Numbered from the stretch's first letter, positions 1,111-63,085 are shown. The stretch is 64,000 bases of DNA from a virus (IMGVR_UViG_3300014039_000024:1-64000), one strand, 5' to 3'. Translations and numbers: made by a program. Notes: generated by a model from the sequence alone, not told the origin.

Positions 1111-4100
1111 TCACTTTACAATAGGCTCTTCTTCGAAATTCGCTCTATTAGATATCATTGCTTCATAAATCTTATGCAAAGTATTTTTAACACTTTCACC
1201 ATAACTAGCAACGTAATAATATCTAAAACGACCAGTATAGCCATTAGCGACAGTAGGCATACCCGTCTAACGAGGGGTAAAAATACTACCAGAGCTATCA
1301 GCTGTAATTTGTTTAACTGGGTGTTTATTAGTACCAACCTATACTTGAATAGCGCCAGTATATCCCTTAAACTAATTACCAGACATATTTAAAATTGTCT
1401 AACCCGAAAACGCATTTACATCAAAATTAAGGATACCATCTTTACATCCTTCTATAATTAAATTATAAGGAGAATAAGAACCCATTTTACTTTGATAAAA
1501 TGCTTGAGCTCCAAAAGTTAAGCCCTCTGTAGAAGAAGAATAAGGAATTATATTATTACGACTTAAAGGACATTGATAAAATGCTTTAGTACCAATTTTC
1601 TTTAAACAATCACTAAACTGGAAATATTCTAATCCGCTATCTAAAGTAAAAGCATAATCATCTATCACAGAAATTTTATTATTATCTTTTGGAGCAAAAA
1701 ATATAGCTGTAATATTAGGATTTACTTGAATACCAACAGCGGCAGATGGATTGACTTGACTATATCTAATTCTTGTAATTGGCTAACCATTATAAATTGT
1801 AGGTAAAGTAATTTTACCTTTTAGATTTTTAGCTAAATCAGTCATCACAAATGATAGTTCTCCATCAGAAGTTATAATATCATAATACTTATGAGTAGAA
1901 TCATTAACTAAAATATTATCATAAACACTAACGGGTTCTCCAACAGCATAGAATTCACGATCTGCATAAGCTAATTGTCTTGTTAAATCAATTTTAACTC
2001 CTTCCTTATCAGCCCATCCAGTCTATTTCCAAGTCCATTCTAACGGATCTTCTCCTTCTGGTAAATCTGTTACTTCGGTATTATTAAAATAATAAAATTC
2101 GTCCGGAACAATAATTTTTTCACCATAATTAAATACTTTCTTTACAGTTGAATCATTAATAACGCGGTCACCATTAACAAAAGTAATCGTGTAAGATTTA
2201 CGTTCAAATCTTGCTTTAAAAACATAATCTATTTTATCAGATTGCAGGGATAAAGAATCCCAATTATCCTTTAAAACAACATCTTTTTCATTTACATCTT
2301 TTCCAACTGTAATTACTAATTCGCCAGTATCATCTTCCCAACCTTTGAAATTATAAGTTGGCATTTTTTCTTGCAAACTACCAAAAGAAATATAGGTTTC
2401 ACTTGAAGAATCCGTAGGATTATCAAAGAACTTAGTGCTTGATAAAGGTAATTTCTAAATCTTTAAAATCTCCTGAGTTAACACTCCATCGGTGTCTTCT
2501 TGTTCAAGGACAAACTTAGCAGAATATTCTTTCTTAACGTTCTTCACAAAAATAGTTAAATTAGGATAAATACTCTGCAGCTCTTCTTGAATTACATGTT
2601 CTTCTATTTCTTGAGTATTTTCAATATAGATAATACCAGTTATATTAGGATAAGTCTAATTAATTCCTTTAAAATAAACAGGAGCTCTATCGTACAAACT
2701 GCGTAATAAAGTATAATTAGTAACTTTACTATGGATATCATCGTATCCATTTACATTATTATCATAATAATAAATTAAATTATTTTTTATTTCACTTGGA
2801 GTGATTTTACTTACATCTTCTGCATTAACTTTTTCTAATTGGAAATGTCCATTATCTTTATAATAATCAATATTGACACTATCTAATTCTGCTTTATCAT
2901 CATTTAACAATCTATAAGGACTCCATTGAACATTAGTTAAATTAACTTCACATCCAGTTAAGCTACTTTTTTCACAACCAAGATAATAACGTCTTAATAA
3001 TTCATAAGAATAATAATCTAAATTACCACCACGGATATCAAAAGTTTTTATACTCGTTGTAATTGCGTTATCTTCAGCATCAGTTAAATTCTTAATATAT
3101 AATCCTTTATTTTCTTCTGCAACCTCAAGACGATTAGTGATAGGATTGACAGTAGGATGCGTATATTTAGTAACCAATTTAGTTAAAAGATTCGCTTCAA
3201 TTAAACTTAAATAATTCGTATAATCAGTTAAATACAAAGTATTTAAAGCAACACCTTCCGCGAACTAAACTTTAGTAACATTAGAACCAGTATTTCTAAA
3301 GTTTTCTAATTTTTCACTCTTAGTTAAATCTAAAGCCACTGGATTTAAAAATCTAATATTACAAAGATTCATTTCTTTTAATAAAGGCATACCCTCACTG
3401 GGATAACTCCAATTATTTACATCATTATTTTTATATTCTTTTCCTTCTTCAGAAAGACCATCATATCCTAACAATAAATCTACTAATTTATTAGCTTTAC
3501 CTCTAATAAACAATTCTTGGAAATATAATTTACTTAAATCTCCAAGAGATTTCATCTACTCTAAGCCATAAATATAATATAATTGTTCGCGATAATTACC
3601 GCTTGACATAATACCTTTCTTTAAGTCTGGAGCAGTAAATCTAACAGGAGTTAAACCATCATATTTCTAAGATGGGAAATTCGCTCCATCAGTTCCAACA
3701 GTAACATAAGAACGACGAGCAGGTTCCATTTCAATCCAATATTCACCATCAAACATATGATTTTTAGTGCCAAATTCACGATCATCTTTCCAATATTGAG
3801 AATTGGTTATTAAATTAGTTAAACCTTGATTATTAGTTCCTTCAATCCATTCATCAGATGTAGTATTCGGATTGTTGGCAGAAATACGACTTATAATATT
3901 ATTACTACCACTATCTCCAGAATATTCATCAACTGTTAACCAAGAGTCAATGTAATTAAGACGATTAGTTAAGAACTGTGAACGATAGAGATTGCGGTCA
4001 CCCTATAAAGCATAGAAATACTAATCACTTTCTATTTCATACTAGCCACCATTGGTGATACGACCGAAAATAGTGTCTTTAGCTGCTGAATTAGTTGGAA

Positions 4101-7100: not shown

Positions 7101-8805
7101 CTTTAGAATAATTTTGTGGATTTCTAATTTTAAATTGAATTTCAATACTATGCGTAGGAGTAGAAGAACTATTATCAAAAGATAACTATCCAATAGGGAT
7201 AGAAACTTCAGCACCATTACTGACTCTTAAACAAGTAGTATTATTATCATCAAAAACCCAACCATTATTATACCAATTAAAGTTTTTAAATTTCGCATAT
7301 TTACCATTAATTTCTAATGTTTCACGACTTAATTTACTTTCAGAATTAGAACGCCCAGTAGCGACAAAATTAACTTTTAAGTCATTACTTCTAGCCAATT
7401 CCATATTTCTTAATGGATCTATTTTAATTGTAAAAGTAAAATTACGAGAATAATCATATGGTTCAGTTCCCACTTTAATTGTATAATAAGAACTATCATT
7501 AACAGAAAGATTAGTAATTTCCCAATATTGCCATTCATTCTAATCAGTAACTTCACGAGTACTTAATAAAACACCATTTTTATATAAACTAACTTTCGCG
7601 GTCGTTACATTAGGATCATACACCCTAAAAGGAATCTTAATCGTTTCATAAGTATAATACTCAGTTTTAAAATCACCAGTCCAAATTAAGGGAGTTTTAC
7701 TACTTCTATCTAAAATAACAATTTCTTTCTCAATAAAATCAGTACCATTCCCTTTTTCACCACTATTAACTAAATAAAGTTTAGCTTTAATAGTATGCTC
7801 TCCGTGAAGGAAATAATTTGCTAAAGTCATTGTAGAATCATTATTATTGTTTAAAATAACAGTATTTTTTGTTATAGTAATACTATCTTCATTTCTAGTA
7901 TTAGTACTACTATATTCTTTATCTAAAACTAAATAATTATCAAAATAAACTTCAATAGCACTATTTACTTTATCAGACATTAACCAAGTAACATTAATTT
8001 GACCATTATCAAAAGGTAAATCATTATTAAATTTACTTTCTTGCCATTGAAGAGCTAATTCATGTGTAGTTACAAATTGAGTTTTCTTAGTGGTAGAAAA
8101 ATGGTTATTAATAGGATCACTATTTTTACTAACAATAAACTCAATTTCATGCGTAGAAGAATTTCTTAAATAAGCAGAAATATCAGTAGTAATTGGCTTA
8201 TTATGCTGATAAGTTTTTGCTTCACTGTAAATATCTTCCCAAGAACCATCACTCTTTTTCTATCTAATAGTCAAAGTGCCTTCAACAGAATCAAGAACCG
8301 GTTCTCCATTTATTGTTCTACATTTTACAAGCGCGATTACACTCACTGATTCACCATTAAGTACATCAGTGGGGCCATCTAAAGTCAAAGAAACAGTACC
8401 ATTTACTTTAATTTCTTGTTCTTGACTTCCGCCACCTGCCAATAGTTTTTCACAACTCGCGACTTCTTCTTTATCATCATTTAATTTAAATTCTTTAATG
8501 CGATAAAATGCTCCATCGCTATTTAAAATTAAATCATTTACATGAGGATTAGAACTTGATAAATTAGATAAACGAATTGAATAGCCAATCGGATTTTCAT
8601 CCGCATCATAATCAATTCCGACTTCTTTCTCAGTTCCATAAATTACCTAAACGCCGCTTGAGCCTATTGGTATTTTATTTTCAGTCGCTGTATCTAAATA
8701 AACTCGTCCTGTATCTGTTGCCACATAAAAATATCCATCAGTTTGCGGATATGCCTTTATTTTTTCTTCTGACCCCTAAACGGGACGAAAATGTATTTTA
8801 GACAT
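1111..8805 (-). CDS. 2564-aa giant virion-associated protein: LamG/ConA-like + CotH-like kinase fold + LRR-like + InlB B-repeat/BspA-type LRR
   Basis: ATG at 8805 with GAAAGGAG RBS; 13 minus-strand ORF-track fragments share one frame and are joined by TAG; TGA at 1111; motifs LTFVY..EIFLNG..DIYSIRVY (LamG), QGTSSRNYPRRNYK, LKIDFMESS, DSRGKN, YDIDTQLG (CotH-like), YNFKGW, IDDYAF..IGTKAFYQC. Confidence 0.8.
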
Positions 8806-50766: not shown

Positions 50767-50782
50767 GCTTCTCTCTTCATTT

Positions 50783-50838
50783 TTCATTTTGATTCATAAA
50801 TATTCATACATATTCATTGCATATTCATACATATTCAT
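50783..50838 (+). repeat. Helically phased TTCAT/ATATTCAT direct repeats
   Basis: ATATTCAT at 50800, 50810, 50821, 50831; TTCAT also ending at 50787 and 50797 (10-11 bp period). Confidence 0.8.
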
Positions 50839-50843
50839 TTGAG

Positions 50844-50925
50844 CGGCGCGACGTGGGCCGCGGCGCGCCGAGTTTTGCAATAGGCAAGTTGCACAAAAAT
50901 TTTTAGATGAATTTGTGCATTATGC
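50844..50925 (+). repeat. Early-arm element copy 2
   Basis: 27-nt hairpin CGGCGCG/CGCGCCG at 50844-50870; TGCACAAA-14-TTTGTGCA at 50890-50919. Confidence 0.8.
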
Positions 50926-51012
50926 CAGTCACCTTTATACACCCGAAAAATGAATATTTATACATGAATATTCATACAGCCCTGATGAATAAATATTTTT
51001 TTCAAAAACCTA

Positions 51013-52644: not shown

Positions 52645-52773
52645 ATATTCATTTGGCCGGCCGTGCGCGACTGGCGCGGCCGGAATTTGCTGTCAATAAG
52701 CCATTTGCACAATTTTTATGGCGAAAGTTTGTGCATTATACCAATAGACAAAATCCCGTATGTGTGCTATACT
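52645..52773 (+). repeat. Early-arm element copy 3
   Basis: ATATTCATTTG, 27-nt hairpin CCGGCCG/CGGCCGG (52657-52683), TGTCAA, TGCACAA-16-TTGTGCA, promoter TAGACA-17-TATACT. Confidence 0.85.
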
Positions 52774-53954: not shown

Positions 53955-53991
53955 AAAGGGGCTTGACAAAAGCCCCTTTCTTTGCTATACT
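53955..53991 (+). promoter_or_regulatory. Promoter with -35 at hairpin apex
   Basis: AAAGGGGCTT-GACAA-AAGCCCCTTT; TTGACA-17-TATACT. Confidence 0.8.
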
Positions 53992-54440: not shown

Positions 54441-54647
54441 ATGAACGAAAAGAGTATTCCTCAGACCTTGAAAGAACAAGCAGAGGCCATCGAAAAGCTG
54501 GCACAGAGAATTTCAAAAGAAAGTCAGGCACTGCCAGACATGGAAGACCGCATTAGTGGAATGGAAATAGCGGATGCCCTGTTTTCATTTCAGTCAAAAA
54601 TGCGATATGAATTCAAATGGATTGCGGAATCCATGTGGGATGAATAA
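54441..54647 (+). CDS. 68-aa helical protein
   Basis: GAAAGGA RBS; terminator 54650-54686. Confidence 0.7.
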   Translation: MNEKSIPQTLKEQAEAIEKLAQRISKESQALPDMEDRISGMEIADALFSFQSKMRYEFKWIAESMWDE

Positions 54648-54696
54648 TTATTCGGGTGAGATAACCAAATCTCACCCGAATTTTTTGTTTCATTTG

Positions 54697-54883
54697 ACTA
54701 TTGACAAAACCATCTGGAAGGTGTATAATTCAGCCGGCCGCCAACGTACGCTGCGGCCGGAAATTCCAGTATATCACAGCTCCAGCAATTTGTCAAGCAA
54801 AAAATTGAAAAAAGTTACACAAATTATTTTTCCCAAATTTGTGCATTTTACCAGTAGACAAAACGCTATGAGCGTGTTATACT
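54697..54883 (+). repeat. Early-arm element copy 4 (complete)
   Basis: TTGACA-17-TATAAT (54701-54729); hairpin CCGGCCGC/GCGGCCGG 54734-54760; antisense promoter; CACAAATT/AATTTGTG; TAGACA-17-TATACT (54855-54883). Confidence 0.9.
54768..54796 (-). promoter_or_regulatory. Antisense sigma-A promoter in element 4
   Basis: Minus-strand TTGACA-17-TATACT with TG extension. Confidence 0.75.
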
Positions 54884-54918
54884 ATAATTGTTCCAAGGGG
54901 AACGGAAAGGTAAGGTAA

Positions 54919-55131
54919 ATGAAAATGACCAACTACGATATCCATGCTTTCGTCAAGACCCAGCTTCTTTATGCCGAGCAGATGCCCAGTGATGCCGAGC
55001 TCTTCAAACACAACGCATATGGCGCTGTCCAGTGGGAACTGTACCGCACCAACGACAAGGCACTTGAAAACAAGTGGAATGACGTATATGCGCCCAAGTT
55101 TGATAAAATTATCAAAAATTATTGGGCATAA
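54919..55131 (+). CDS. 70-aa hypothetical protein
   Basis: AAGGTAAGG RBS. Confidence 0.75.
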   Translation: MKMTNYDIHAFVKTQLLYAEQMPSDAELFKHNAYGAVQWELYRTNDKALENKWNDVYAPKFDKIIKNYWA

Positions 55132-55165
55132 GGGGTTGACAAAACCCCTTTCCCCATGGTATAAT
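55130..55165 (+). promoter_or_regulatory. Promoter with -35 at hairpin apex
   Basis: AAGGGGTT-GACAA-AACCCCTT; TTGACA-18-TATAAT. Confidence 0.75.
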
Positions 55166-55202
55166 ATCATCAATCCAAGAGAGAAAGAAAGAGGTAAATC
55201 AA

Positions 55203-55544
55203 ATGCTTATCAAAATGTCCAAACACGCCACGCAAGACCGCATCGACCGCTTGTTCTTCATCTATGATAATATCGGCATTGGTGAAGAGTATATCAACAG
55301 CGTAGAGGATGACGTGCTTTATACTATTACAACGACTGGCGTTCTGCTTGTGCGCAGTCCAAAAGATGGAACACTGATTACCGCCTATATCGCGGACATT
55401 GACAAAATCACCGCGATTTGGAGAAACAAGCACGGTGAGCGTCCTATGCCTGACAATCTTTACAAGCGCGTCCTCGCAAATGCGTTCTTTGACAGAATGT
55501 GGAACAAAATTGAAAAGGATGGTAAGAAAAATGTTGTTCGGTAA
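55203..55544 (+). CDS. 113-aa protein, possible BECR/RelE-like RNase fold
   Basis: SKHATQDR..R and TLITAY motifs. Confidence 0.5.
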   Translation: MLIKMSKHATQDRIDRLFFIYDNIGIGEEYINSVEDDVLYTITTTGVLLVRSPKDGTLITAYIADIDKITAIWRNKHGERPMPDNLYKRVLANAFFDRMWNKIEKDGKKNVVR

Positions 55545-55890
55545 AAAAGAAAAGAAATTCAATCCCTACGAGAACCACGCGGACGAACTTCTTTATGAGC
55601 TTTGGGACGTGGAACGCCACCTTGAAGAGTGTGTTGAAAAGTCAATTGCGCGGATAGGCGTTGTGTCTTTATATCCAGATGGGCCTGACCGCAGAAAAGC
55701 ACTATCTGATGCCGATGAAGCTAAACATTCCTTGCTTGTTGCTATTGGAGCATTTGATACATCCCGCATGGTTTACAATGATTATGTAAACAAGCATCAA
55801 GAAAACTTTGATAATCCGCGGAAGCCGTGGAAACACACAAGTCATGAAACCATTGAGCGGGTTTATAAGAATTTTTATAAGAGAGGTTAA
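55531..55890 (+). CDS. 119-aa hypothetical protein
   Basis: Start overlapping previous gene; MLFGKKEKKFNPYEN... Confidence 0.7.
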   Translation: MLFGKKEKKFNPYENHADELLYELWDVERHLEECVEKSIARIGVVSLYPDGPDRRKALSDADEAKHSLLVAIGAFDTSRMVYNDYVNKHQENFDNPRKPWKHTSHETIERVYKNFYKRG

Positions 55891-55895
55891 GTAAA

Positions 55896-56135
55896 ATGAA
55901 AATTACTGTTAAGAATAATAATAAACTTGTTCCGTTTGAAGATATCCCTATCGGTATGGTTTTCAAAGACCCTGTAAGTCGTGATATGTATTATATTAAG
56001 GCCGAATCGGTTCTTGATGAAAACACCGATGAAGAAGAACTAAACTCTTTCTGTGTTAGCAATAACACTTTTAACTGTTTCGGTCCTCAGTATATGGTTC
56101 AGCCCACCTACGGCGCAGAATTGATTATTCCCTGA
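55896..56135 (+). CDS. 79-aa hypothetical protein
   Basis: GAGG RBS, TGA stop. Confidence 0.75.
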   Translation: MKITVKNNNKLVPFEDIPIGMVFKDPVSRDMYYIKAESVLDENTDEEELNSFCVSNNTFNCFGPQYMVQPTYGAELIIP

Positions 56136-56245
56136 TAAAACCGAACATTTGTTCGCGTTTATTTCTCCCCCTTTCCAATGGCTTTGGCAGTTGAGCCTAT
56201 CAACTGCCACCCTTTCCAAAAATTATTTTTAAGGAGAATAGAAAA

Positions 56246-56425
56246 ATGGAAAATAAGGAAATGCTTAGCGAAGTGGTTGAAAAGGTCTGTGCGATGGCTC
56301 GTTATGGTATTCAGAAGCGTTTCGCTCCCGATGAAGCAGGGGCAAAGGAAATGATTGAGCGTGTTTCGCTCATTGAGGATAAGCTCGTTCCTATTCTCAT
56401 CGACCTTGAAGCTGTAGAAAGTTGA
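56246..56425 (+). CDS. 59-aa hypothetical protein
   Basis: AAGGAG RBS; MENKEMLSEVVEKVCAMARYG...; terminator 56429-56458. Confidence 0.7.
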   Translation: MENKEMLSEVVEKVCAMARYGIQKRFAPDEAGAKEMIERVSLIEDKLVPILIDLEAVES

Positions 56426-56468
56426 ATGAAAAATCACCCAATTTGGGTGATTTTTTTTGTTTAATTTC

Positions 56469-56622
56469 ACTATTGACAAAGTTCCTTAAATGTGATAAAA
56501 TCGCCGCGCGCGAACGGCTGTGGCGCGCCGAGTTTTTGTCAAGATGTAAGTTCAACAAATTTTTGTACGATTTTTTGGTTATTCTGCCAATAGACAAAAT
56601 TCCCAAAATCTGGTAATATAGT
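56469..56622 (+). repeat. Early-arm element copy 5 (antisense -10 missing)
   Basis: TTGACA-17-TAAAAT (56473-56501); imperfect CGCCGCG/CGCGCCG hairpin; TGTCAA directly after it; TAGACA promoter at 56591. Confidence 0.8.
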
Positions 56623-56649
56623 ATCATAAAAGGAAAGGGAGAAATCAAA

Positions 56650-57087
56650 ATGAAAAAGTACAGTGTTTATAAGTATAATAACCGCACATTCCGCGTTTAT
56701 GTGTCAGAGTGTGGATATGGCTTGGTTGATGTGGTCGTGCGCGAGGTCGTACACCCTGAGCGCAAGTTTTTCAAAACGAGATATTTCTATCAGAATATCT
56801 ACTGCACCGAAGATTTTGAAGAAATCAGCGATATTGAGCGGTCTGCCATAGCATGTGGTTTTGCTTTGGAAGAACAGCATCAGGCTTATGAAGCTAAAAT
56901 GGAAAAGGTGGTGTCAAGAATGATGTATGAAGAAGTTAATACCTATATACTCGAAGATTGGCTGAGCGCATGGGTAGAAACGTTCAATGATTGCGCGTGT
57001 TGTCCCTTGTCCGACCAGTGCGACCGCGAGGGCGGGATTGATAGTATAGTATGTGCAGATAGATTATTAGAGAAATTAAAAGAGTAA
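56650..57087 (+). CDS. 145-aa protein with C-terminal Cys cluster
   Basis: AAGGGAG RBS; CACCPLSDQC..C. Confidence 0.75.
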   Translation: MKKYSVYKYNNRTFRVYVSECGYGLVDVVVREVVHPERKFFKTRYFYQNIYCTEDFEEISDIERSAIACGFALEEQHQAYEAKMEKVVSRMMYEEVNTYILEDWLSAWVETFNDCACCPLSDQCDREGGIDSIVCADRLLEKLKE

Positions 57088-57102
57088 ATTAAAAATTTCT
57101 TA

Positions 57103-57131
57103 TTGACAATAATATTATAATATGATATTAT
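57103..57131 (+). promoter_or_regulatory. Sigma-A promoter
   Basis: TTGACA-17-TATTAT with TG extension. Confidence 0.7.
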
Positions 57132-57160
57132 TACAATAGAAAAAGGAAAGGGTGATATCT

Positions 57161-57634
57161 ATGAATACAATTCTTTTATTCGCGGGATGCACCGCAGTTA
57201 ATGTGATTCTATCAACCATTAAAAGCATCGTAACTGTCAAGGGCGGAAAGTTTATTGCATCTCTGATGAACGCTTTGACTTATGGATTTTATTCCTATGT
57301 CATTATTTTAACTTCCGCAGATGGTATGAGCGTTTGGGCAAAAATGGGCATTACTGCCGTCTGTAATTTCGTGGGCGTTTACCTTGTCAAGTGGATTGAG
57401 GAAAAAGCCCGCAAGGATAGGCTGTGGGAGATTCGAGCGACCATTCCCGCAAACAATACACAGGAAGTTCATTCTGCATTGAAGGACGTTCCACACAATT
57501 ATATTCTTAATGTGGGCAAGTATACTGTATTTAATATTTACTGTGCCACACAAAAAGAAAGTGCTATGGTCAAGCCGGTCTTAAATCAATATGGGGCAAA
57601 GTATTTTGTTTCCGAAAGTAAAAATCTTGATTAA
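57161..57634 (+). CDS. UPF0316 (DUF5698/DUF2179)-like membrane protein, 157 aa
   Basis: NVILSTIKSIVTVKG..ASLMNALTYGFY..CNFVGVYL; three TM helices plus soluble C-terminus. Confidence 0.7.
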   Translation: MNTILLFAGCTAVNVILSTIKSIVTVKGGKFIASLMNALTYGFYSYVIILTSADGMSVWAKMGITAVCNFVGVYLVKWIEEKARKDRLWEIRATIPANNTQEVHSALKDVPHNYILNVGKYTVFNIYCATQKESAMVKPVLNQYGAKYFVSESKNLD

Positions 57635-57648
57635 GGGGAGAAATTAAA

Positions 57649-58101
57649 ATGAAAGCTACTGGTATTATTCGCAGAATTGATGACCTTGGACGTGTAGTTA
57701 TTCCGAAAGAAATTCGACGCACTCTTAAAATTCGCGAGGGAGACCCACTTGAAATTTTCTTGGGAGAGCAGAATACAATCTGTTTCAAGAAGTATTGTGT
57801 CCTCGGTAAGATGGATGATGAAGTCCTGCGAGTAGCGGTTGAGATGGCAAGAAAGTCAAATCTTGCACCTATTGCAATTTATGACCGCGGAGAAAAGTTG
57901 AAAGGAATGGAGAACTTCCCATCTTACGTCCCCGACGAATGGAGAAATTATTCTGAACCTTTTCTTTATAATGCCACTTATGGTGTTTACCCCATCATTA
58001 CGAACGGTGATTTTGAGGGCTATGTTGTTTGTGACCACAGTAGTATTAGCGTTGAAATGGGAATGATTGCTCGCTATCTGAGTGTTGCAATTGAGGAATA
58101 A
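57649..58101 (+). CDS. AbrB/SpoVT-family transcription regulator, 150 aa
   Basis: MKATGIIRRIDDLGRVVIPKEIRRTLKIREGDPLEIF matches the SpoVT/AbrB N-terminal domain closely. Confidence 0.9.
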   Translation: MKATGIIRRIDDLGRVVIPKEIRRTLKIREGDPLEIFLGEQNTICFKKYCVLGKMDDEVLRVAVEMARKSNLAPIAIYDRGEKLKGMENFPSYVPDEWRNYSEPFLYNATYGVYPIITNGDFEGYVVCDHSSISVEMGMIARYLSVAIEE

Positions 58102-58103
58102 CT

Positions 58104-58289
58104 ATGAGAGTTGAAAAGAAATATCAGGTTGACTATAACGGGACGAACCCTTGGGGTCAAAGTTATGATAATCGAATGCTTTTTGATTCCGAGGAAGAAG
58201 CAGATGTTTTTATCGAAAAGCTGAAACAGGATGAAAATATCTATCAGGCATTCAAAACTGTTACAACCTGTTTCTATCACTTACATTAA
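58104..58289 (+). CDS. 61-aa hypothetical protein
   Basis: GAGGA RBS; terminator 58294-58332. Confidence 0.7.
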   Translation: MRVEKKYQVDYNGTNPWGQSYDNRMLFDSEEEADVFIEKLKQDENIYQAFKTVTTCFYHLH

Positions 58290-58342
58290 AAATATTTTGA
58301 GACGAGATAACCAAATCTCGTCTCAAAATTTTATCTATTTTA

Positions 58343-58527
58343 CCTATTGACAAATAGGCTCAGGTATGATAAAATGGCCGGCCGTTTGCGTCTGCCACGG
58401 CCGGAATTTCAATTATACCACCATCCCAACAATTTGTCAATAGACAATTTGAATAAAAATCTCGCACTTAAATTTCCCGATTTTGTGCATTTTGCCAATA
58501 GACAAATCAATACTGACCTGTTATACT
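58343..58527 (+). repeat. Early-arm element copy 6 (complete)
   Basis: TTGACA-17-TAAAAT (58347-58375); hairpin CCGGCCGT/ACGGCCGG 58378-58404; antisense promoter; TAGACA-17-TATACT (58499-58527). Confidence 0.9.
58412..58440 (-). promoter_or_regulatory. Antisense sigma-A promoter in element 6
   Basis: Minus-strand TTGACA-17-TATAAT with TG extension. Confidence 0.8.
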
Positions 58528-58559
58528 ATAGATACAGTAAAGGAAAGGGGAACAACAAA

Positions 58560-59057
58560 ATGAAAATTATTTACATCAAGTCTCACGTGCGGATTCGCCG
58601 GTCTATCAATTTGGATATGGACGGCACTATTGCTGACCTTTACGGCGTTAAGGACTGGCTTCCGCTTCTCCGTTCGGAAAATCCTAGGCCTTACCGAATG
58701 GCAATCCCTATGTGCGACATGACCGCGTTGAATGAAGTGTGCGAACTTCTCCGTGCGGACGGCTGGGAAATCAATATCATTACTTGGCTTTCTAAGGATT
58801 CGAGCGAGGAATACAAAGATGCCGTTCGTAAAGCAAAGCGCGCTTGGTTGAAAGAGCAGGGTTTCCACTACGACCATTTTCACGGCATTCAGTATGGCGC
58901 GACCAAAGCCGACAGTGTGCGCGACCGTTATGATTTTTCTATCCTTGTTGATGATAACAAAAAAGTCCGTGATGGTTGGCACATTGGTTCAACTATTGAC
59001 CCAACCGCTGAAAATTTGGTTGAAGCGCTGAAAGAAATTTTGGAGAAAGGGGCTTGA
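58560..59057 (+). CDS. HAD-superfamily 5'(3')-deoxyribonucleotidase-like phosphatase, 165 aa
   Basis: LDMDGTIADL (DxDxT), ITW, K, ILVDD motifs; AAGGGG RBS before 58560. Confidence 0.85.
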   Translation: MKIIYIKSHVRIRRSINLDMDGTIADLYGVKDWLPLLRSENPRPYRMAIPMCDMTALNEVCELLRADGWEINIITWLSKDSSEEYKDAVRKAKRAWLKEQGFHYDHFHGIQYGATKADSVRDRYDFSILVDDNKKVRDGWHIGSTIDPTAENLVEALKEILEKGA

Positions 59058-59082
59058 CAAGCCCCGCTCCATGTGTTATAAT
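59049..59082 (+). promoter_or_regulatory. Promoter with -35 at hairpin apex
   Basis: GGGGCTT-GAC-AAGCCCC; TTGACA-17-TATAAT; upstream TGA stop lies inside the -35. Confidence 0.8.
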
Positions 59083-59109
59083 CAATGTATCAAATGAAAG
59101 GGTGATAAA

Positions 59110-59253
59110 ATGATGCCTTACTTTTGGCTTACTCTTGGTGTTCTCGCAAAAGTGACTGGACAGACTGAGGGCGGTAACTATTACTATGAAACCGTTGTCT
59201 CCAAAGAAATTGGACTCGTAACCGCAGAATGGGTTCATAGCCATTTGATGTGA
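59110..59253 (+). CDS. 47-aa hypothetical protein
   Basis: GAAAGGGTG RBS; MMPYFWLTLGVLAKVTG... Confidence 0.55.
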   Translation: MMPYFWLTLGVLAKVTGQTEGGNYYYETVVSKEIGLVTAEWVHSHLM

Positions 59254-59262
59254 GGTAAAAAA

Positions 59263-59577
59263 ATGTTGTACTTAATGATGGATGATTTAGCCAACAGTCA
59301 TTTGGTAAAAGTTGGTTATTCCGATGGCACTAAAAATCTCGCAAAGCGTCGCAAAAGCTATTATAGCCATAATCCAAAAGCAATAATGCGTAGTACCTGT
59401 GCGGGCAGTCGAGACATGGAAAATACTTGTCATCAGACTTTAAGTGAGTTAGGTATCCGCATTAGTGGTACAGAATGGTTTGAAGTGCCAGCGGATTTGT
59501 TTGATTCTCTTTACTATAAAGGAATGGCATTTTTTAGACCAAATCATAAGCCGATTCATTTCTTAGAAGAATTTTGA
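59263..59577 (+). CDS. T5orf172/GIY-YIG-like protein, 104 aa
   Basis: LYLM..LVKVGYS..R..ME..H..GTEWF. Confidence 0.75.
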   Translation: MLYLMMDDLANSHLVKVGYSDGTKNLAKRRKSYYSHNPKAIMRSTCAGSRDMENTCHQTLSELGIRISGTEWFEVPADLFDSLYYKGMAFFRPNHKPIHFLEEF

Positions 59578-59591
59578 AAAGGGGAAAAATT

Positions 59592-59846
59592 ATGAAAGTA
59601 AATTTTGGCGACAAAGGCAAGCTCCAAATTATGAATATTTTGTGCGGTGGCACGTTCACCACGCAAAGGAGCGAGGGCGGAACGGGAATGTATCTCAAAG
59701 TTGATGGCAACAACAAAGCTCCGTTTATTAAATCAAGGGGTTGGCAATTTTGTTATGCAGTCAATCTTGAAACGGGTCAGATTCGAGAATTTTCTCGTGA
59801 ACAGTTGGTTACCCCTGTTAAAACCGAAGTCAATGTAATTGACTAA
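59592..59846 (+). CDS. 84-aa hypothetical protein
   Basis: AAGGGG RBS; terminator 59857-59887. Confidence 0.7.
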   Translation: MKVNFGDKGKLQIMNILCGGTFTTQRSEGGTGMYLKVDGNNKAPFIKSRGWQFCYAVNLETGQIREFSREQLVTPVKTEVNVID

Positions 59847-59897
59847 TTTCAAAATGAAAATCTCCCCAAAAATGGGGAGATTTTTTTGTTTATTTTG

Positions 59898-60084
59898 ACT
59901 ATTGACACCGACCGGGGAATGTGATAAAATTGGCCGGTCGCCCACGCACGTTGCGACCGGAATTTACCATTATACACCCTGCCAGCATTTTTGTCAAGAG
60001 AAATTTTGCACAAATTTGATTATTTTCAGATCCCGAAACTTGTGCAATTTGTCAATAGACAAATCAATACTGACCTGCTATAAT
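59898..60084 (+). repeat. Early-arm element copy 7 (complete)
   Basis: TTGACA-17-TAAAAT (59902-59930); hairpin CCGGTCGC/GCGACCGG 59934-59960; antisense promoter; TGCACAA/TTGTGCA; TAGACA-17-TATAAT (60056-60084). Confidence 0.9.
59969..59997 (-). promoter_or_regulatory. Antisense sigma-A promoter in element 7
   Basis: Minus-strand TTGACA-17-TATAAT. Confidence 0.8.
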
Positions 60085-60089
60085 ACATA

Positions 60090-60205
60090 ATGTCAGGAGG
60101 AAAGAGTAAGACCTGCGGAAAGGCGGTTCACCTGACCATTGTACCAGAAGTCGGTGCGAAAGTCTCAAGCGTGGCGTGCCGAACAAACTTTCAAAAAAGT
60201 TTGAA
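60090..60205 (+). ncRNA. Candidate structured small RNA A
   Basis: Follows promoter 60056-60084, no RBS before the ATG at 60090; stems GTCAGG/CCTGAC and TCGGTGCG/CGTGCCGA. Confidence 0.4.
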
Positions 60206-60212
60206 AAACCCC

Positions 60213-60241
60213 TTGACAAATCGCTCATCCTATGGTACAAT
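60213..60241 (+). promoter_or_regulatory. Sigma-A promoter
   Basis: TTGACA-17-TACAAT with TG extension. Confidence 0.8.
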
Positions 60242-60272
60242 GAATACATCAAATGAGAGAGGTATAAACAAG

Positions 60273-60377
60273 ATGACTATTGAAGCTCGTCCACCGCCTA
60301 AAAAAATTCGCAAAAACCTATTGACAAACCCGCAAATCTATGATACAATAACTACATCAAAGACAAGGACAGTCTAA
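60273..60377 (+). CDS. 34-aa micro-ORF MTIEARPPPKK...
   Basis: Own promoter and GAGAGAGG RBS; runs across the next promoter. Confidence 0.4.
   Translation: MTIEARPPPKKIRKNLLTNPQIYDTITTSKTRTV
60321..60349 (+). promoter_or_regulatory. Sigma-A promoter
   Basis: TTGACA-17-TACAAT with TG extension. Confidence 0.8.
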
Positions 60378-60400
60378 AATACCAGAAAGGAATTGATACT

Positions 60401-60775
60401 ATGTCTACTTCTACTGTTAAGAAGCTCACCAAGCGCGACCGTTTCGAGGCTCTTCTCAAGATGACCGAGGTTCAGGCAAACCCTGATATGGTTGAGTTCA
60501 TCAACCATGAGATTGAGCTTCTCGCCAAGAAGAACGCGGGCGATAAGAAGCCCACAGCCAAGCAGATGGAGAATGACGCGGTGAAGCAGGTCATTCTGGA
60601 CGCCATGACCGAGAACGCGGGTAAGCTGTTCACTGTGACTGACCTGATTAAGAGCGTCCCCGAACTGGGGGATTACTCCAATCAGCGTGTTTCCGCTCTT
60701 CTGCGCCAGATGATTGAAGCGGGTGCTGTCGTTAAGACGGTCGATAAGCGCAAGTCTTATTTCTCCCTTGCGTAA
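60401..60775 (+). CDS. Winged-helix-like DNA-binding protein, paralog 1 (124 aa)
   Basis: FTVTDLIK..SNQRVSALLRQM..VVKTVDKRKSYF; terminator 60783-60812. Confidence 0.7.
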   Translation: MSTSTVKKLTKRDRFEALLKMTEVQANPDMVEFINHEIELLAKKNAGDKKPTAKQMENDAVKQVILDAMTENAGKLFTVTDLIKSVPELGDYSNQRVSALLRQMIEAGAVVKTVDKRKSYFSLA

Positions 60776-60825
60776 AGGGCAAGGGACAGGGGATAAAAAA
60801 ATCCCCTGTCCCGCATAAAAAAGTC

Positions 60826-60854
60826 TTGACAAATCCAAAAGTAAGCGTTATAAT
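60826..60854 (+). promoter_or_regulatory. Sigma-A promoter
   Basis: TTGACA-17-TATAAT. Confidence 0.85.
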
Positions 60855-60918
60855 ACTTATAGAGGTTGAGAGAACGATGGTAAACCTCAATCGAATTTTA
60901 TGAATGGAGACATACAAC

Positions 60919-61695
60919 ATGAGCATTGATAAGCGCAGAAACTACGGTATCATGTTAGATACTGAAACCGCGAACACTATCCAGCAGGGCGATAAACTGG
61001 ATATGTCGAACGTCTTGCCGTATGATTTTGGATGGGCGGTCATTGATTCCAAGGGCAACGTCTATGAAACTTATTCCTTTGTGAATCGCGACATTTTCTG
61101 CTATGAGCGCGACCTGATGCAGTCCGCCTATTACGCCGACAAGATTCCCCGCTATATCGAGGACATTGCGAACGGCACCCGAATCATGGCAGACCTATTT
61201 GAAATTCGACAGGCTTTCTGCGACTGCGTGGAACGCTATAATTGTTCTTTTGTGTGTGCTCACAACATGAGATTTGACCTTAATGCTTGCAACAATGCTC
61301 AGCGTTGGGACACGAAAAGCAAGTATCGCTATTTCTTCCCTTACGGGCTTGAAGTGTGGGACACTCTGAAAATGGCGCGACAGATTATCGGCAAGATGCC
61401 TACTTACCGCGATTATTGCGAACAAAACGGCTACAAGACTAAAAATGGACAGCTCCGCTTTACCGCAGAAATCCTTTACCGCTTTATTAGTGGTGAAGAA
61501 GAATTTGATGAATCGCATACGGGACTTGAAGATGTTCTGATTGAAGTTGAGATTTTGAAGTATTGTGTTCGTCAGCACAAGGCAATGGAAAAGTCTCTTT
61601 TCAAGAAACCAGAAACGGAACGCCCGCGCCCTACGGACTTCCAGCGGGAACTCATGCGAAACATTAAGGAAAATCCAATGGTAAACATGAGATAA
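60919..61695 (+). CDS. DEDDh-family 3'-5' exonuclease, ~258 aa
   Basis: LDTET (ExoI), AHNMRFD (ExoII), HTGLED (ExoIII); GGAG RBS favours ATG 60919 over 60904. Confidence 0.85.
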   Translation: MSIDKRRNYGIMLDTETANTIQQGDKLDMSNVLPYDFGWAVIDSKGNVYETYSFVNRDIFCYERDLMQSAYYADKIPRYIEDIANGTRIMADLFEIRQAFCDCVERYNCSFVCAHNMRFDLNACNNAQRWDTKSKYRYFFPYGLEVWDTLKMARQIIGKMPTYRDYCEQNGYKTKNGQLRFTAEILYRFISGEEEFDESHTGLEDVLIEVEILKYCVRQHKAMEKSLFKKPETERPRPTDFQRELMRNIKENPMVNMR

Positions 61696-61702
61696 AAAAA
61701 AT

Positions 61703-61743
61703 AGGGAACAGGGCTTGACAAGTCCTGTTCCCTGTGATATAAT
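61703..61743 (+). promoter_or_regulatory. Promoter with -35 at apex of 14-bp hairpin
   Basis: AGGGAACAGGGCTT-GAC-AAGTCCTGTTCCCT (one G.T pair); TTGACA-17-TATAAT. Confidence 0.8.
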
Positions 61744-61773
61744 AAGTACATCCAAAAGAAAGAGGTGTTTCCT

Positions 61774-62052
61774 ATGAACGCAAAACAAGTCCTTTTTGTA
61801 GACCCTAATGAGAATGACCCGCACATGGGTATTCTGATTGACCATGATTACATCATCTGCGCGGAATGCGGTGGCGTTTTTGAAGCTGATGAAGTGCTCA
61901 TCATTAAGACTTATGACTTTTGGGTCAACTTTGAAAATGAAATCGCGGACGAGCTTGACCTACTGACTGCTCAAACCATTGCAAAAGAATTGAATATCGC
62001 GGGCAAGTCAGGGCGCGATATTTGGGCAGAAAAAATTAAAGAAGAATTCTGA
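61774..62052 (+). CDS. 92-aa protein with CxxC
   Basis: GAGGTG RBS; ICAECGG; terminator 62054-62081. Confidence 0.75.
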   Translation: MNAKQVLFVDPNENDPHMGILIDHDYIICAECGGVFEADEVLIIKTYDFWVNFENEIADELDLLTAQTIAKELNIAGKSGRDIWAEKIKEEF

Positions 62053-62091
62053 CAAAAGGGAGAGAAATCTCCCTTTTTTTTGTTTATTTTG

Positions 62092-62277
62092 CCTATTGAC
62101 AAATGCGGATTTCTATGTTAAAATGGGCGGCCCGCGAACGCCCAACGCGGGCCGAATTCACCATTATACCACGCCCCGCCAATTTTGTCAAGAGAAAAGT
62201 TACATAAAAATGAAAAAAGTTTTTTCCCGTAATTTGGTTATTTTGTCAATTGCAATTCGTGGGCAATCTGTTATAAT
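62092..62277 (+). repeat. Early-arm element copy 8 (complete core)
   Basis: TTGACA-17-TAAAAT (62096-62124); hairpin CGGCCCGCG/CGCGGGCCG 62128-62154; antisense promoter; degenerate inverted repeat; TG-TATAAT at 62272. Confidence 0.85.
62163..62191 (-). promoter_or_regulatory. Antisense sigma-A promoter in element 8
   Basis: Minus-strand TTGACA-17-TATAAT with TG extension. Confidence 0.8.
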
Positions 62278-62282
62278 AGATA

Positions 62283-62365
62283 ATGTCAAGAGGGAATGAC
62301 ACTGAGGTAAACCACGGCAAGCCTATGTGGGACGGGTTCAAATCCCTTTAAGGACGCTTAAAAAA
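62283..62365 (+). ncRNA. Candidate small RNA B
   Basis: Follows the -10 at 62272; AGAGGGA/TCCCTTT closing stem, GGGTTCAAATCCC T-loop-like hairpin; no RBS. Confidence 0.35.
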
Positions 62366-62379
62366 AGTGAAATTCCCTC

Positions 62380-62408
62380 TTGACAAAACCCCGCAAGCGT
62401 GCTACAAT
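62380..62408 (+). promoter_or_regulatory. Sigma-A promoter
   Basis: TTGACA-17-TACAAT with TG extension. Confidence 0.8.
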
Positions 62409-62413
62409 AGATA

Positions 62414-62620
62414 ATGTCAAGAGGAAGTAGCCCAAGAAATCCGAGGGCGCGCGACTTCGAGAAAGTATAGGAAGTAAACGTAATACACCACGTAGTAAAG
62501 CCAAACGTTGAACGCGAAAGTGAGTTTGACTTGTCAGTTTGCGGATATGTCCGCAACGTTAAATAAGCAAACAAGACCTTATCCGTCAGGTCGGGGTTGT
62601 AAATCGTGTAAAAAGTTTGC
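62414..62620 (+). ncRNA. Candidate ~200-nt multi-hairpin RNA C
   Basis: Own promoter, no RBS; stems GAAGT/ACTTC, GCCC/GGGC, AACGTTG/CAACGTT enclosing GC-GAAA-GT, GA-CTTG-TC and GCGGA/TCCGC, then GACC/GGTC. Confidence 0.5.
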
Positions 62621-62628
62621 AAAACCTC

Positions 62629-62657
62629 TTGACAAACTTCTCAAAGTGTGGTACACT
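62629..62657 (+). promoter_or_regulatory. Sigma-A promoter
   Basis: TTGACA-17-TACACT with TG extension. Confidence 0.75.
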
Positions 62658-62707
62658 TAATACATCAAAAGGGTAGCGACCTACCGCCAAAGAAAGGAAT
62701 TGATACT

Positions 62708-63085
62708 ATGTCTACTTCTACTGTTAAGAAGCTCACCAAGCGCGACCGTTTCGAGATGCTCCTGACCATGGATGAGGTCAAAGCTGACGCCGGCATGGTT
62801 GAGTTCATCAACCATGAGATTGACCTGCTCGCTCGCAAGAACGCGTCTGATAAAAAGCCGACCGCGAATCAGGTGGCGAATGACGGCTACAAGGATATTA
62901 TCTTTGCTGAGCTGTCCGCGAATCCCGACCGCCTGTACACTGTGACCGAGCTTATCAAGGGCGTTGATGGTCTGGGCGACCTGTCCAATCAGCGCGTTTC
63001 CGCTCTGCTCCGTCAGATGGTGGAAGCCAACGGCGTTGAAAAGGTCGTTGAAAAGCGCAAGTCTTATTTCCGTCTTGCCCACTAA
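62708..63085 (+). CDS. Winged-helix-like DNA-binding protein, paralog 2 (125 aa)
   Basis: Same MSTSTVKKLTKRDRFE start and SNQRVSALLRQM..KRKSYF as 60401 gene; hairpin 63092-63121. Confidence 0.7.
   Translation: MSTSTVKKLTKRDRFEMLLTMDEVKADAGMVEFINHEIDLLARKNASDKKPTANQVANDGYKDIIFAELSANPDRLYTVTELIKGVDGLGDLSNQRVSALLRQMVEANGVEKVVEKRKSYFRLAH

Follow-up and report, generated by a model that had tools for sequence, protein, structure and literature searches.

Predicted antisense promoters with a GC hairpin at their start in the early-gene regions of uncultured phages from gut and rumen

Four antisense promoters in the early island

The window analyzed here is a 64,000-nucleotide stretch of viral DNA (IMGVR_UViG_3300014039_000024:1-64000), the first 64 kb of one 85,085-bp contig. 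Our subject is a repeated minus-strand antisense promoter in it, hereafter Pas, together with the GC-rich hairpin that lies at its predicted start. Bases 1-47,906 (the late arm, ~30% GC) contain long minus-strand genes which are open only when TAG is read as an amino acid; 18 open reading frames (ORFs) of at least 250 amino acids are listed there under this code, and two late-arm ORFs of 2564 and 2754 amino acids contain 33 and 66 TAG codons, respectively. Small plus-strand genes occupy an island at ~49,080-64,500, with a GC content of ~42% and 23 plus-strand promoters scoring at least 11/12 within its 15.4 kb. This island is the early region, driven by the host polymerase. The Pas are the sole strong minus-strand promoters within it, at four sites, and the predicted cassette to which they belong lies between units of early genes in a large clade of uncultured phages from gut and rumen.

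Promoters were located by a promoter scan and by a whole-genome regular-expression search, the score being out of 12 hexamer positions. An earlier note on this DNA had described, in copies 4, 6, 7 and 8 of the repeated cassette, a minus-strand TTGACA-17-TATA(A/C)T facing a plus-strand promoter (hereafter P1), with the -10 boxes 38, 36, 38 and 38 bp apart and an antisense start 1-2 nt outside a GC stem. Both scans agree with this description and the distances were the same when remeasured; a start placed 7 nt past the -10 falls at 54761, 58405, 59962 and 62156. Three Pas are TTGACA-17-TATAAT (12/12; 58440..58412, 59997..59969 and 62191..62163) and one is TTGACA-17-TATACT (11/12; 54796..54768), and every one except that at 59997 carries the extended -10 TG. 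The -10 of P1 is TATAAT in the promoter at 54701-54729 and TAAAAT in those at 58347-58375, 59902-59930 and 62096-62124. In each of the four copies, Pas and P1 flank a 27-nt GC hairpin, and a gene-proximal sense promoter (P2) lies behind Pas. Four minus-strand promoters of at least 11/12 were thus observed in the 15.4-kb island, against a mean of 0.24 in 300 dinucleotide shuffles of the same sequence, of which the maximum was 2 and none reached four; the Pas are therefore not a product of chance. The features of these copies are as follows.

54650..54681, both strands: copy 4, two-way terminator (preceding gene), where the antisense RNA is predicted to end; 13-bp stem, minus-strand tail AATTATTCAT, a weak U-tract
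54701..54729, plus: copy 4, P1, TTGACA-17-TATAAT (promoter scans); -10 ends 4 nt before the stem
54734..54760: copy 4, GC hairpin, 27 nt, -17.0 kcal/mol
54768..54796, minus: copy 4, Pas, TTGACA-17-TATACT, extended -10 TG; -10 ends 7 nt before the stem
54642..54761, minus: copy 4, predicted antisense RNA of ~117-120 nt; fold z -5.0; no AUG with a ribosome-binding site
54855..54883, plus: copy 4, P2, TAGACA-17-TATACT; box TCCCAAATTTGTGCA ahead at 54831-54845
58294..58329, both strands: copy 6, two-way terminator; 15-bp stem, minus-strand tail ATTTTTAATG
58347..58375, plus: copy 6, P1, TTGACA-17-TAAAAT; 2 nt to the stem
58378..58404: copy 6, GC hairpin, 27 nt, -17.9 kcal/mol
58412..58440, minus: copy 6, Pas, TTGACA-17-TATAAT, 12/12, TG; 7 nt to the stem
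58286..58405, minus: copy 6, predicted antisense RNA of ~116-120 nt; fold z -7.5
58499..58527, plus: copy 6, P2; box TCCCGATTTTGTGCA ahead at 58475-58489
59856..59885: copy 7, two-way terminator (terminator scans)
59902..59930, plus: copy 7, P1, TTGACA-17-TAAAAT (promoter scans)
59934..59960: copy 7, GC hairpin, 27 nt (hairpin scan)
59969..59997, minus: copy 7, Pas, 12/12; 8 nt to the stem
59850..59962, minus: copy 7, predicted antisense RNA of ~106-113 nt; fold z -4.4; alternative pairing with the P1 spacer possible
60056..60084, plus: copy 7, P2, driving an ORF-free stretch; box TCCCGAAACTTGTGCA ahead at 60031-60045
62054..62077: copy 8, two-way terminator (terminator scans)
62096..62124, plus: copy 8, P1, TTGACA-17-TAAAAT (promoter scans)
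62128..62154: copy 8, GC hairpin, 27 nt, -19.9 kcal/mol
62163..62191, minus: copy 8, Pas, 12/12, TG; 8 nt to the stem
62050..62156, minus: copy 8, predicted antisense RNA of ~102-107 nt; fold z -4.3
62250..62277, plus: copy 8, P2, TTGCAA-16-TATAAT; box TCCCGTAATTTGGTT ahead at 62225-62239

Pas is opposite in strand to the surrounding genes and drives no ORF. Since the start sites of P1 and Pas are ~24 bp apart in the window copies, direct competition between the two is physically unavoidable in this phage, where P1 is present. The absence of the antisense -10 from copy 5 and of both flanking promoters from copies 2 and 3, also reported before, was seen again by hairpin-based inspection. These natural controls, with a ninth copy, are the following.

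50843..50872: copy 2, natural control, hairpin with no flanking promoter (hairpin inspection)
52658..52682: copy 3, natural control, hairpin with no flanking promoter; P2 at 52745-52773
56473..56542: copy 5, natural control, P1, hairpin (56501-56531) and TGTCAA; ~28 nt for the antisense -10 missing
64,238: ninth copy, P1 only, just beyond the window

Conservation of the module and its core

Close relatives were taken as the fourteen viral contigs fetched via a 124-amino-acid early protein (81-88% identical), and face-to-face P1/Pas units are also present in them. Their loci were scanned from GC hairpins, promoters being ignored, and this hairpin-first scan gives four classes: P1 with Pas, Pas only, P1 only, and neither. 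The gap between the -10 and the stem is 2-4 nt on the P1 side vs 7-9 nt on the Pas side, and a promoter of the same kind was found on both sides in 0 of 502 hairpins. The distribution of Pas scores is bimodal, with 12/12 in 120 copies, 11 in 5, 10 in 2 and background values in the rest, and comparison of copies across the relatives indicates that an absent Pas is an indel, not the result of decay. The missing segment would be consistent with a slipped deletion, as AATTT lies on both sides of it in the long form. Across 45 distinct copies from the protein-fetched relatives, located by their hairpin, the entropy of the -35 is 0.20 bits and that of the -10 is 0.09, compared with 1.29 in the spacer and ~1.0-1.15 in the flanks. 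Such near-invariant hexamers amid variable spacers argue for purifying selection on the Pas hexamers. The antisense boxes, whose lack of conservation in homologous elements the earlier note had named as evidence against its proposal, are in fact the best-conserved part. Compared with P1, Pas also comes nearer to consensus: of 127 Pas copies, 121 have TATAAT as their -10, the P1 -10 being TAAAAT in 60 and TATAAT in 36. The share of TAAAAT in P1 is higher with Pas (24 to 9) than without it (8 to 11), in copies that are not independent of each other. The number of Pas copies per genome is 4 here and up to 9 in relatives.

These data bear on a reading in which the minus-strand boxes would not be promoters and the whole would be a recombination or structural cassette comparable to the promoter-early stem-loops (PeSL) of other phages, its symmetry a by-product. 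The element does recur at intervals of 1.5-2 kb, with small genes of unknown function in between; the content between cassettes, and even what replaces P1, differs among relatives; and the hairpin is a perfect DNA palindrome. However, such a cassette would account neither for the strict and asymmetric gaps (2-4 vs 7-9 nt), with no same-kind pair among the 502 hairpins, nor for near-invariant hexamers beside variable spacers, nor for Pas without P1 in most copies. We regard it as the least probable of the five readings considered here, which are not mutually exclusive.

At the position of copy 4, several relatives carry a small promoter-driven RNA unit with its own terminator in place of P1, the hairpin, Pas, box and P2 being kept; the predicted antisense RNA is there ~245 nt long and spans the unit. 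Also, ORF-free promoter-driven stretches at 60090-60190, 62285-62370 and 62415-62605 in the window, and at 3880-3990 in relative L004, share a common leader, ATAATGTCA(A/G)GAGG. In the deposited phage record phAss-1 (OQ749652.1), two unannotated face-to-face pairs surround GC hairpins at 130,714-130,804 and 132,917-133,008, with a weaker antisense -10 (TACAAT) and a shorter stem gap than in the window.

Distant copies were searched with a pattern made only of the Pas promoter and the first eight transcribed bases, with no hairpin in it. It matched 63 viral stretches, 15 contigs of metagenome-assembled genomes (MAGs) and at least 120 metagenome stretches; the metagenomic counts given below (105 distinct copies and subsets of them) are among the matches listed. 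A hairpin lies 6-10 nt past the -10 in 98 of the 105 copies (93%), and 94 of these 98 have a -10-to-stem gap of 7-9 nt. Relative to the ORFs, 85 copies are antisense, 1 is sense and 19 are ambiguous. The control set consisted of perfect promoters in the same loci that had not been used for fetching, and here a start-proximal hairpin accompanies 62 of 82 antisense promoters vs 20 of 561 sense ones. Similarly, A-rich leaders and ribosome-binding sites come after the sense promoters in five diverged viral contigs, where the promoters with a strong GC hairpin at 7-9 nt are those opposite to the ORF strand.

P1 faces Pas in only 17 of the 98 hairpin-bearing metagenomic copies. Thus, the family of head-to-head promoter-antisense RNAs proposed in the earlier note keeps its anatomy in the close relatives, but the pairing with P1 turns out to be a minority arrangement, and a role that depends on P1 cannot be the general function of the family. 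The conserved core is the antisense promoter with a hairpin at its start, not the head-to-head pair, and its order is sense terminator, GC hairpin, Pas, conserved box, P2. Of 96 copies, 84 have a sense intrinsic terminator within the 160 nt that precede the hairpin, and 49 have one within the last 30 nt. The median distance from the antisense start to the stop codon of the facing gene is 86 nt. Because Pas follows the sense terminator, a Pas RNA would be complementary to the terminator and U-tail of the preceding message, and distant Pas RNAs would often be complementary to the end of the preceding coding sequence as well. The module is almost certainly functional, since it recurs in hundreds of related phage contigs.

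A function of this kind could be exerted on the DNA, with Pas acting as a parking or competition site for polymerase that blocks P1 and upstream read-through and so insulates the cassettes or throttles early transcription, the RNA being a by-product. Host polymerase binds very tightly to a promoter that is consensus throughout. All elements of Pas match the consensus, the TG and the GG past the -10 among them, and Pas is closer to consensus than P1; its location right behind a sense terminator (84 of 96 copies), the stems that are perfect on both strands and an RNA body that is not conserved would all fit such a site. Yet a parking site leaves unexplained why 93% of copies keep a GC hairpin exactly where the transcript would start. 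Competition with P1 is not a general role, since most copies lack P1, and in this phage P1 itself would defeat the insulation. We consider this explanation unlikely, though it comes first among the alternatives.

The part of the cassette behind Pas is also conserved. A box, TCCC(G/A)AAATTTGTGCA, occupies a fixed place 39-54 nt from the Pas -35 (114 metagenomic copies, among the matches listed), and its part TTTGTGCA lies at 47-48 nt in 55 copies. The -35 of P2 is 64-66 nt from that of Pas in 53 copies, 50-54 nt in 15 and 74-79 nt in 16, i.e., in spacing variants offset by roughly 10-14 bp. The box and TTGCACAAA make an inverted repeat, TTGCACAAA...TTTGTGCA, which was rejected as an RNA hairpin because it is the sequence, kept at fixed positions, rather than the pairing that is conserved. 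An RNA hairpin is therefore a less likely identity for the box than a regulator's binding site on the DNA or an upstream promoter element. Pas might then be the divergent twin of P2, the two sharing the box region, and would tune P2 through a regulator or through negative supercoiling. The fixed distance of the box, the offset of the P2 spacing classes and an architecture kept in distant contigs speak for such a coupling; the box and P2 also occur without Pas, in copies 2, 3 and 5, and the coupling would have no need of a hairpin at the Pas start. We hold it to be less probable than a polymerase site on the DNA.

Regarding the identity of these phages, the nearest deposited record is phAss-1, labeled 'Caudoviricetes code 15 clade', whose host was predicted among Clostridia by its authors (PMC10607447); promoters are not mentioned in that paper. 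MAG contigs with the Pas module are mostly labeled Clostridia, Acutalibacteraceae, Faecousia or Eubacteriales, and the hosts of the clade carrying the cassette are probably Clostridia. A blastn search of 54600-62300 against 50,697 phage records returned short matches only. Rfam gave no match at gathering score over the whole window and, with a looser E-value on 54600-62700, only sub-threshold, terminator-driven matches. No tRNA genes were found in the window, and a Pfam scan of ten proteins revealed no T4-type hallmark.

Other observations concern the surroundings of the cassettes. Two paralogous early genes of ~124 amino acids (60401-60775 and 62700-63085) share 82% DNA identity over their first 195 nt, each with its own promoter before it, and the one that was scanned had no Pfam match. 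At 50780-50990, ATATTCAT(A/T)C is repeated 4-5 times in tandem directly before the copy 2 hairpin, with inverted ATGAATAT copies after it; this iteron-like arrangement might serve as an origin or as an array for protein binding. In the distant relative L043, a tRNA-like stretch (GGTTCAATTCCCCC) at 7760-7835 stands behind a promoter, just upstream of one antisense module.

The GC hairpin and the predicted antisense RNAs

The hairpin has a modal size of 27 nt, stems of -14 to -22 kcal/mol and loops of 9-11 nt that are poorly conserved. The sequence of the stem varies freely, even between copies of one genome, and the pairing is kept, with Watson-Crick pairs at 656 of 673 stem positions (97.5%). 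With a start 7 nt past the -10, the stem would lie within ~4 nt of the predicted 5' end of the antisense RNA. A P1 transcript with the usual start distance would begin at a G in the 5' arm and would still form a blunt 6-8-bp stem. As a perfect palindrome would suit either strand, the hairpin may be a two-strand 5' cap for whichever promoter flanks it, and in the promoter-free copies it may be a relic or a 3' structure.

Three other roles for the hairpin were rejected. As the terminator of the antisense RNA itself it would be weak at best, being followed by CCAUUUUAU (the complement of the P1 -10 TAAAAT), with a U-run that starts 3-4 nt past the stem. As a sense terminator it has a poor tail, AAUUU(C/A)CC, and a proper sense terminator already precedes it. 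Mimicry of a CRISPR repeat would fit poorly with stems that differ within a genome and with loops of 9-11 nt. Elsewhere in the island, GC stems with the -35 hexamer of a sense promoter in their loop, e.g. GGGGCTTGACAAAAGCCCC, are seen at 53955-53979, 59046-59070 and similar sites, where they appear as terminator-like matches overlapping promoters.

The stability and near-constant size of the hairpin (27 nt mode), together with 4 to 9 copies per genome under promoters that are strong by design, would suit an RNA that works in trans on a host factor or a defence system, whether as a decoy or as a small regulator, for example by titrating an RNA-binding protein or a nuclease. Against this, the stem sequence is free and pairing alone is kept, the 9-11-nt loops are poorly conserved, and the window holds no match to an Rfam family. 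We find this improbable.

Minus-strand terminator-like sites lie at 54681..54650, 58329..58294, 59880..59863 and 62073..62060. Of the minus-strand U-tracts, that at 58294 is good and that at 54650 weak, with moderate ones at 59857 and 62054. The earlier note had predicted RNAs of ~100-115 nt; our own terminator scan predicts 102-117 nt, and an antisense-direction terminator occurs at this distance in the window and in the 14 close relatives. The anatomy proposed in the earlier note, with a 5' hairpin, a middle complementary to P1 and a two-way terminator at the 3' end, likewise holds in this phage and its close relatives. The four predicted RNAs (stretches of 108-121 nt were folded for the z-scores) fold into a hairpin at the 5' end and a terminator at the 3' end, separated by a variable stretch, with z from -4.3 to -7.5. 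Reading of the four sequences revealed no AUG with a preceding ribosome-binding site, and small proteins encoded on the antisense RNAs were dismissed, there being no plausible ORF in any of the four. In the window, the predicted RNAs overlap no coding sequence and no ribosome-binding site. They are complementary to the first ~24 nt of any P1 transcript, which is untranslated leader.

Among the readings considered, we tentatively prefer, at somewhat less than an even chance, that Pas is a working sigma-A promoter making a short non-coding RNA which is protected by its 5' hairpin and works in cis, at the 3' end of the message before it. To the observed sequence, geometry, conservation and orientation this adds transcription, the RNA ends, stabilization by the hairpin and pairing, all of which we infer. 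Pas would fire away from the gene that it precedes, back into the end of the preceding unit, from elements that are maximal (TTGACA, a 17-bp spacer, an extended -10 TG, TATAAT and a GG just downstream). The transcript would begin 0-2 nt before the GC hairpin, so that a 5'-terminal stem could protect it from 5'-end-dependent decay, as such stems are known to do for other RNAs. In this phage it would cross P1 and end at the two-way terminator of the upstream gene after ~100-120 nt. The body of the RNA could then pair with the early mRNA upstream, at its terminator hairpin and U-tail. The duplex would expose the 3' ends of early mRNAs to double-strand-specific cleavage and 3' decay. In this manner the RNA might set the timing of early expression or restrict it, in the way that lambda OOP acts on cII. 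A role for the RNA itself is suggested by the fixed distance from start to stem and by the position after sense terminators. Whether these RNAs are a widespread class, made at every early-unit boundary, that would add up to a genome-wide timer shutting off early expression in the gut Clostridia phages of this clade is a further step, which we find doubtful.

Several observations weigh against an RNA of this kind. The body between hairpin and terminator is not conserved in sequence; this is expected, because an antisense RNA is perfectly complementary to its target by construction. The hairpin is not demonstrably a structure of the antisense-strand RNA: G-T pairs number 5 on the antisense strand vs 12 on the sense strand, hence no antisense G-U bias, and the other symmetric strand test (7 G-T vs 8 A-C) shows no bias either, so that with near-perfect Watson-Crick pairing the two strands are not distinguishable. 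A first test that had favored the antisense strand (57 vs 18 hairpins, 69 vs 34 G-U) was discarded, being biased by same-strand folding selection. Also, the hairpin persists in copies 2 and 3 with no promoter on either side. The rigid Pas-box-P2 spacing suggests that part of the function is exerted on the DNA. Finally, the short RNA is not universal: an antisense-direction terminator precedes the facing ORF in 35 of 86 distant copies, and there is none before it in the other 51.

If the RNAs exist, they would constitute a simple and highly repeated regulatory device across an abundant clade of gut and rumen phages whose biology is opaque. The module also provides a signature (TTGACAAA-N12-TGnTATAAT-GGWRAATTY, then a GC stem) by which early regions and the direction of their genes can be annotated in such contigs, and parts of practical interest in Firmicutes, namely a maximal sigma-A promoter, a compact two-strand 5' cap hairpin and two-way terminators. 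Its natural variants (P1 and Pas, Pas only, P1 only, neither) are ready controls.

Comparison with known systems

Like the predicted P1/Pas pairs, coliphage 186 pR/pL, P2 Pe/Pc and IS10 pIN/pOUT are short-range facing promoters, with polymerase interference and overlapping 5' ends. In these systems there are genes behind both promoters, or else the antisense RNA spans the ribosome-binding site of the target. Unlike the 186-type switch, Pas serves no gene, is present in multiple copies, and lacks a facing P1 in most of them; the overlap between the Pas and P1 RNAs amounts to ~24 nt of untranslated leader. Transcriptional interference has been reviewed (PMC5423467).

Intergenic cassettes of a related appearance have been described in T4-type phages. 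These PeSLs consist of a stem-loop terminator and an early promoter of a strong, host-like type; they border small genes without known function within a variable region, and cassette shuffling through them has been proposed (PMC2839356; PMC4122927). The Pas cassette is likewise a repeated intergenic terminator plus host-type early promoter between small variable genes. However, the PeSL has no backward promoter, its stem-loop is a terminator and not a structure at a transcript start, and it belongs to another phage group and host phylum. The Pas cassette is not in a T4-type myovirus, the nearest record being phAss-1 and the ten scanned proteins having no T4-type Pfam hallmark.

For the hairpin, the closest parallel is with 5'-terminal stem-loops that stabilize RNA, such as those of the Bacillus subtilis aprE leader and of Escherichia coli ompA and papA (works in the reference list of PMC3997798). 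A stable stem within a few nucleotides of the 5' end is common to both. Those stabilizers cap protein-coding messages, whereas the Pas RNA would be non-coding and antisense, with a stabilization that is only predicted.

A published description of the Pas module was not found in the literature, Rfam or the annotated phage records searched. The nearest known RNA is lambda OOP, which overlaps 52 bases of cII and directs RNase III-dependent cleavage (PMC5869508). Like OOP, the Pas RNAs would be short non-coding phage RNAs that are transcribed from their own promoter against an early operon, end at a terminator hairpin and are complementary to the 3' part of the upstream message. However, OOP is a single copy within a lysis-lysogeny circuit, whereas the predicted Pas RNAs come in 4 copies here (up to 9 in relatives), one per early cassette boundary. 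OOP overlaps coding sequence, and the Pas RNAs of the window would overlap terminator and promoter only. The hairpin at the 5' end is the defining feature of the Pas RNA, unlike OOP; its host is probably a Firmicute, and it is predicted from sequence. If our reading is true, these RNAs would be a multi-copy, boundary-marking addition to the few known antisense RNAs of phages, most of which act as single-copy switches in temperate coliphages. The Pas module would then be a variation on phage antisense RNAs, solidly conserved and with a function that we infer.

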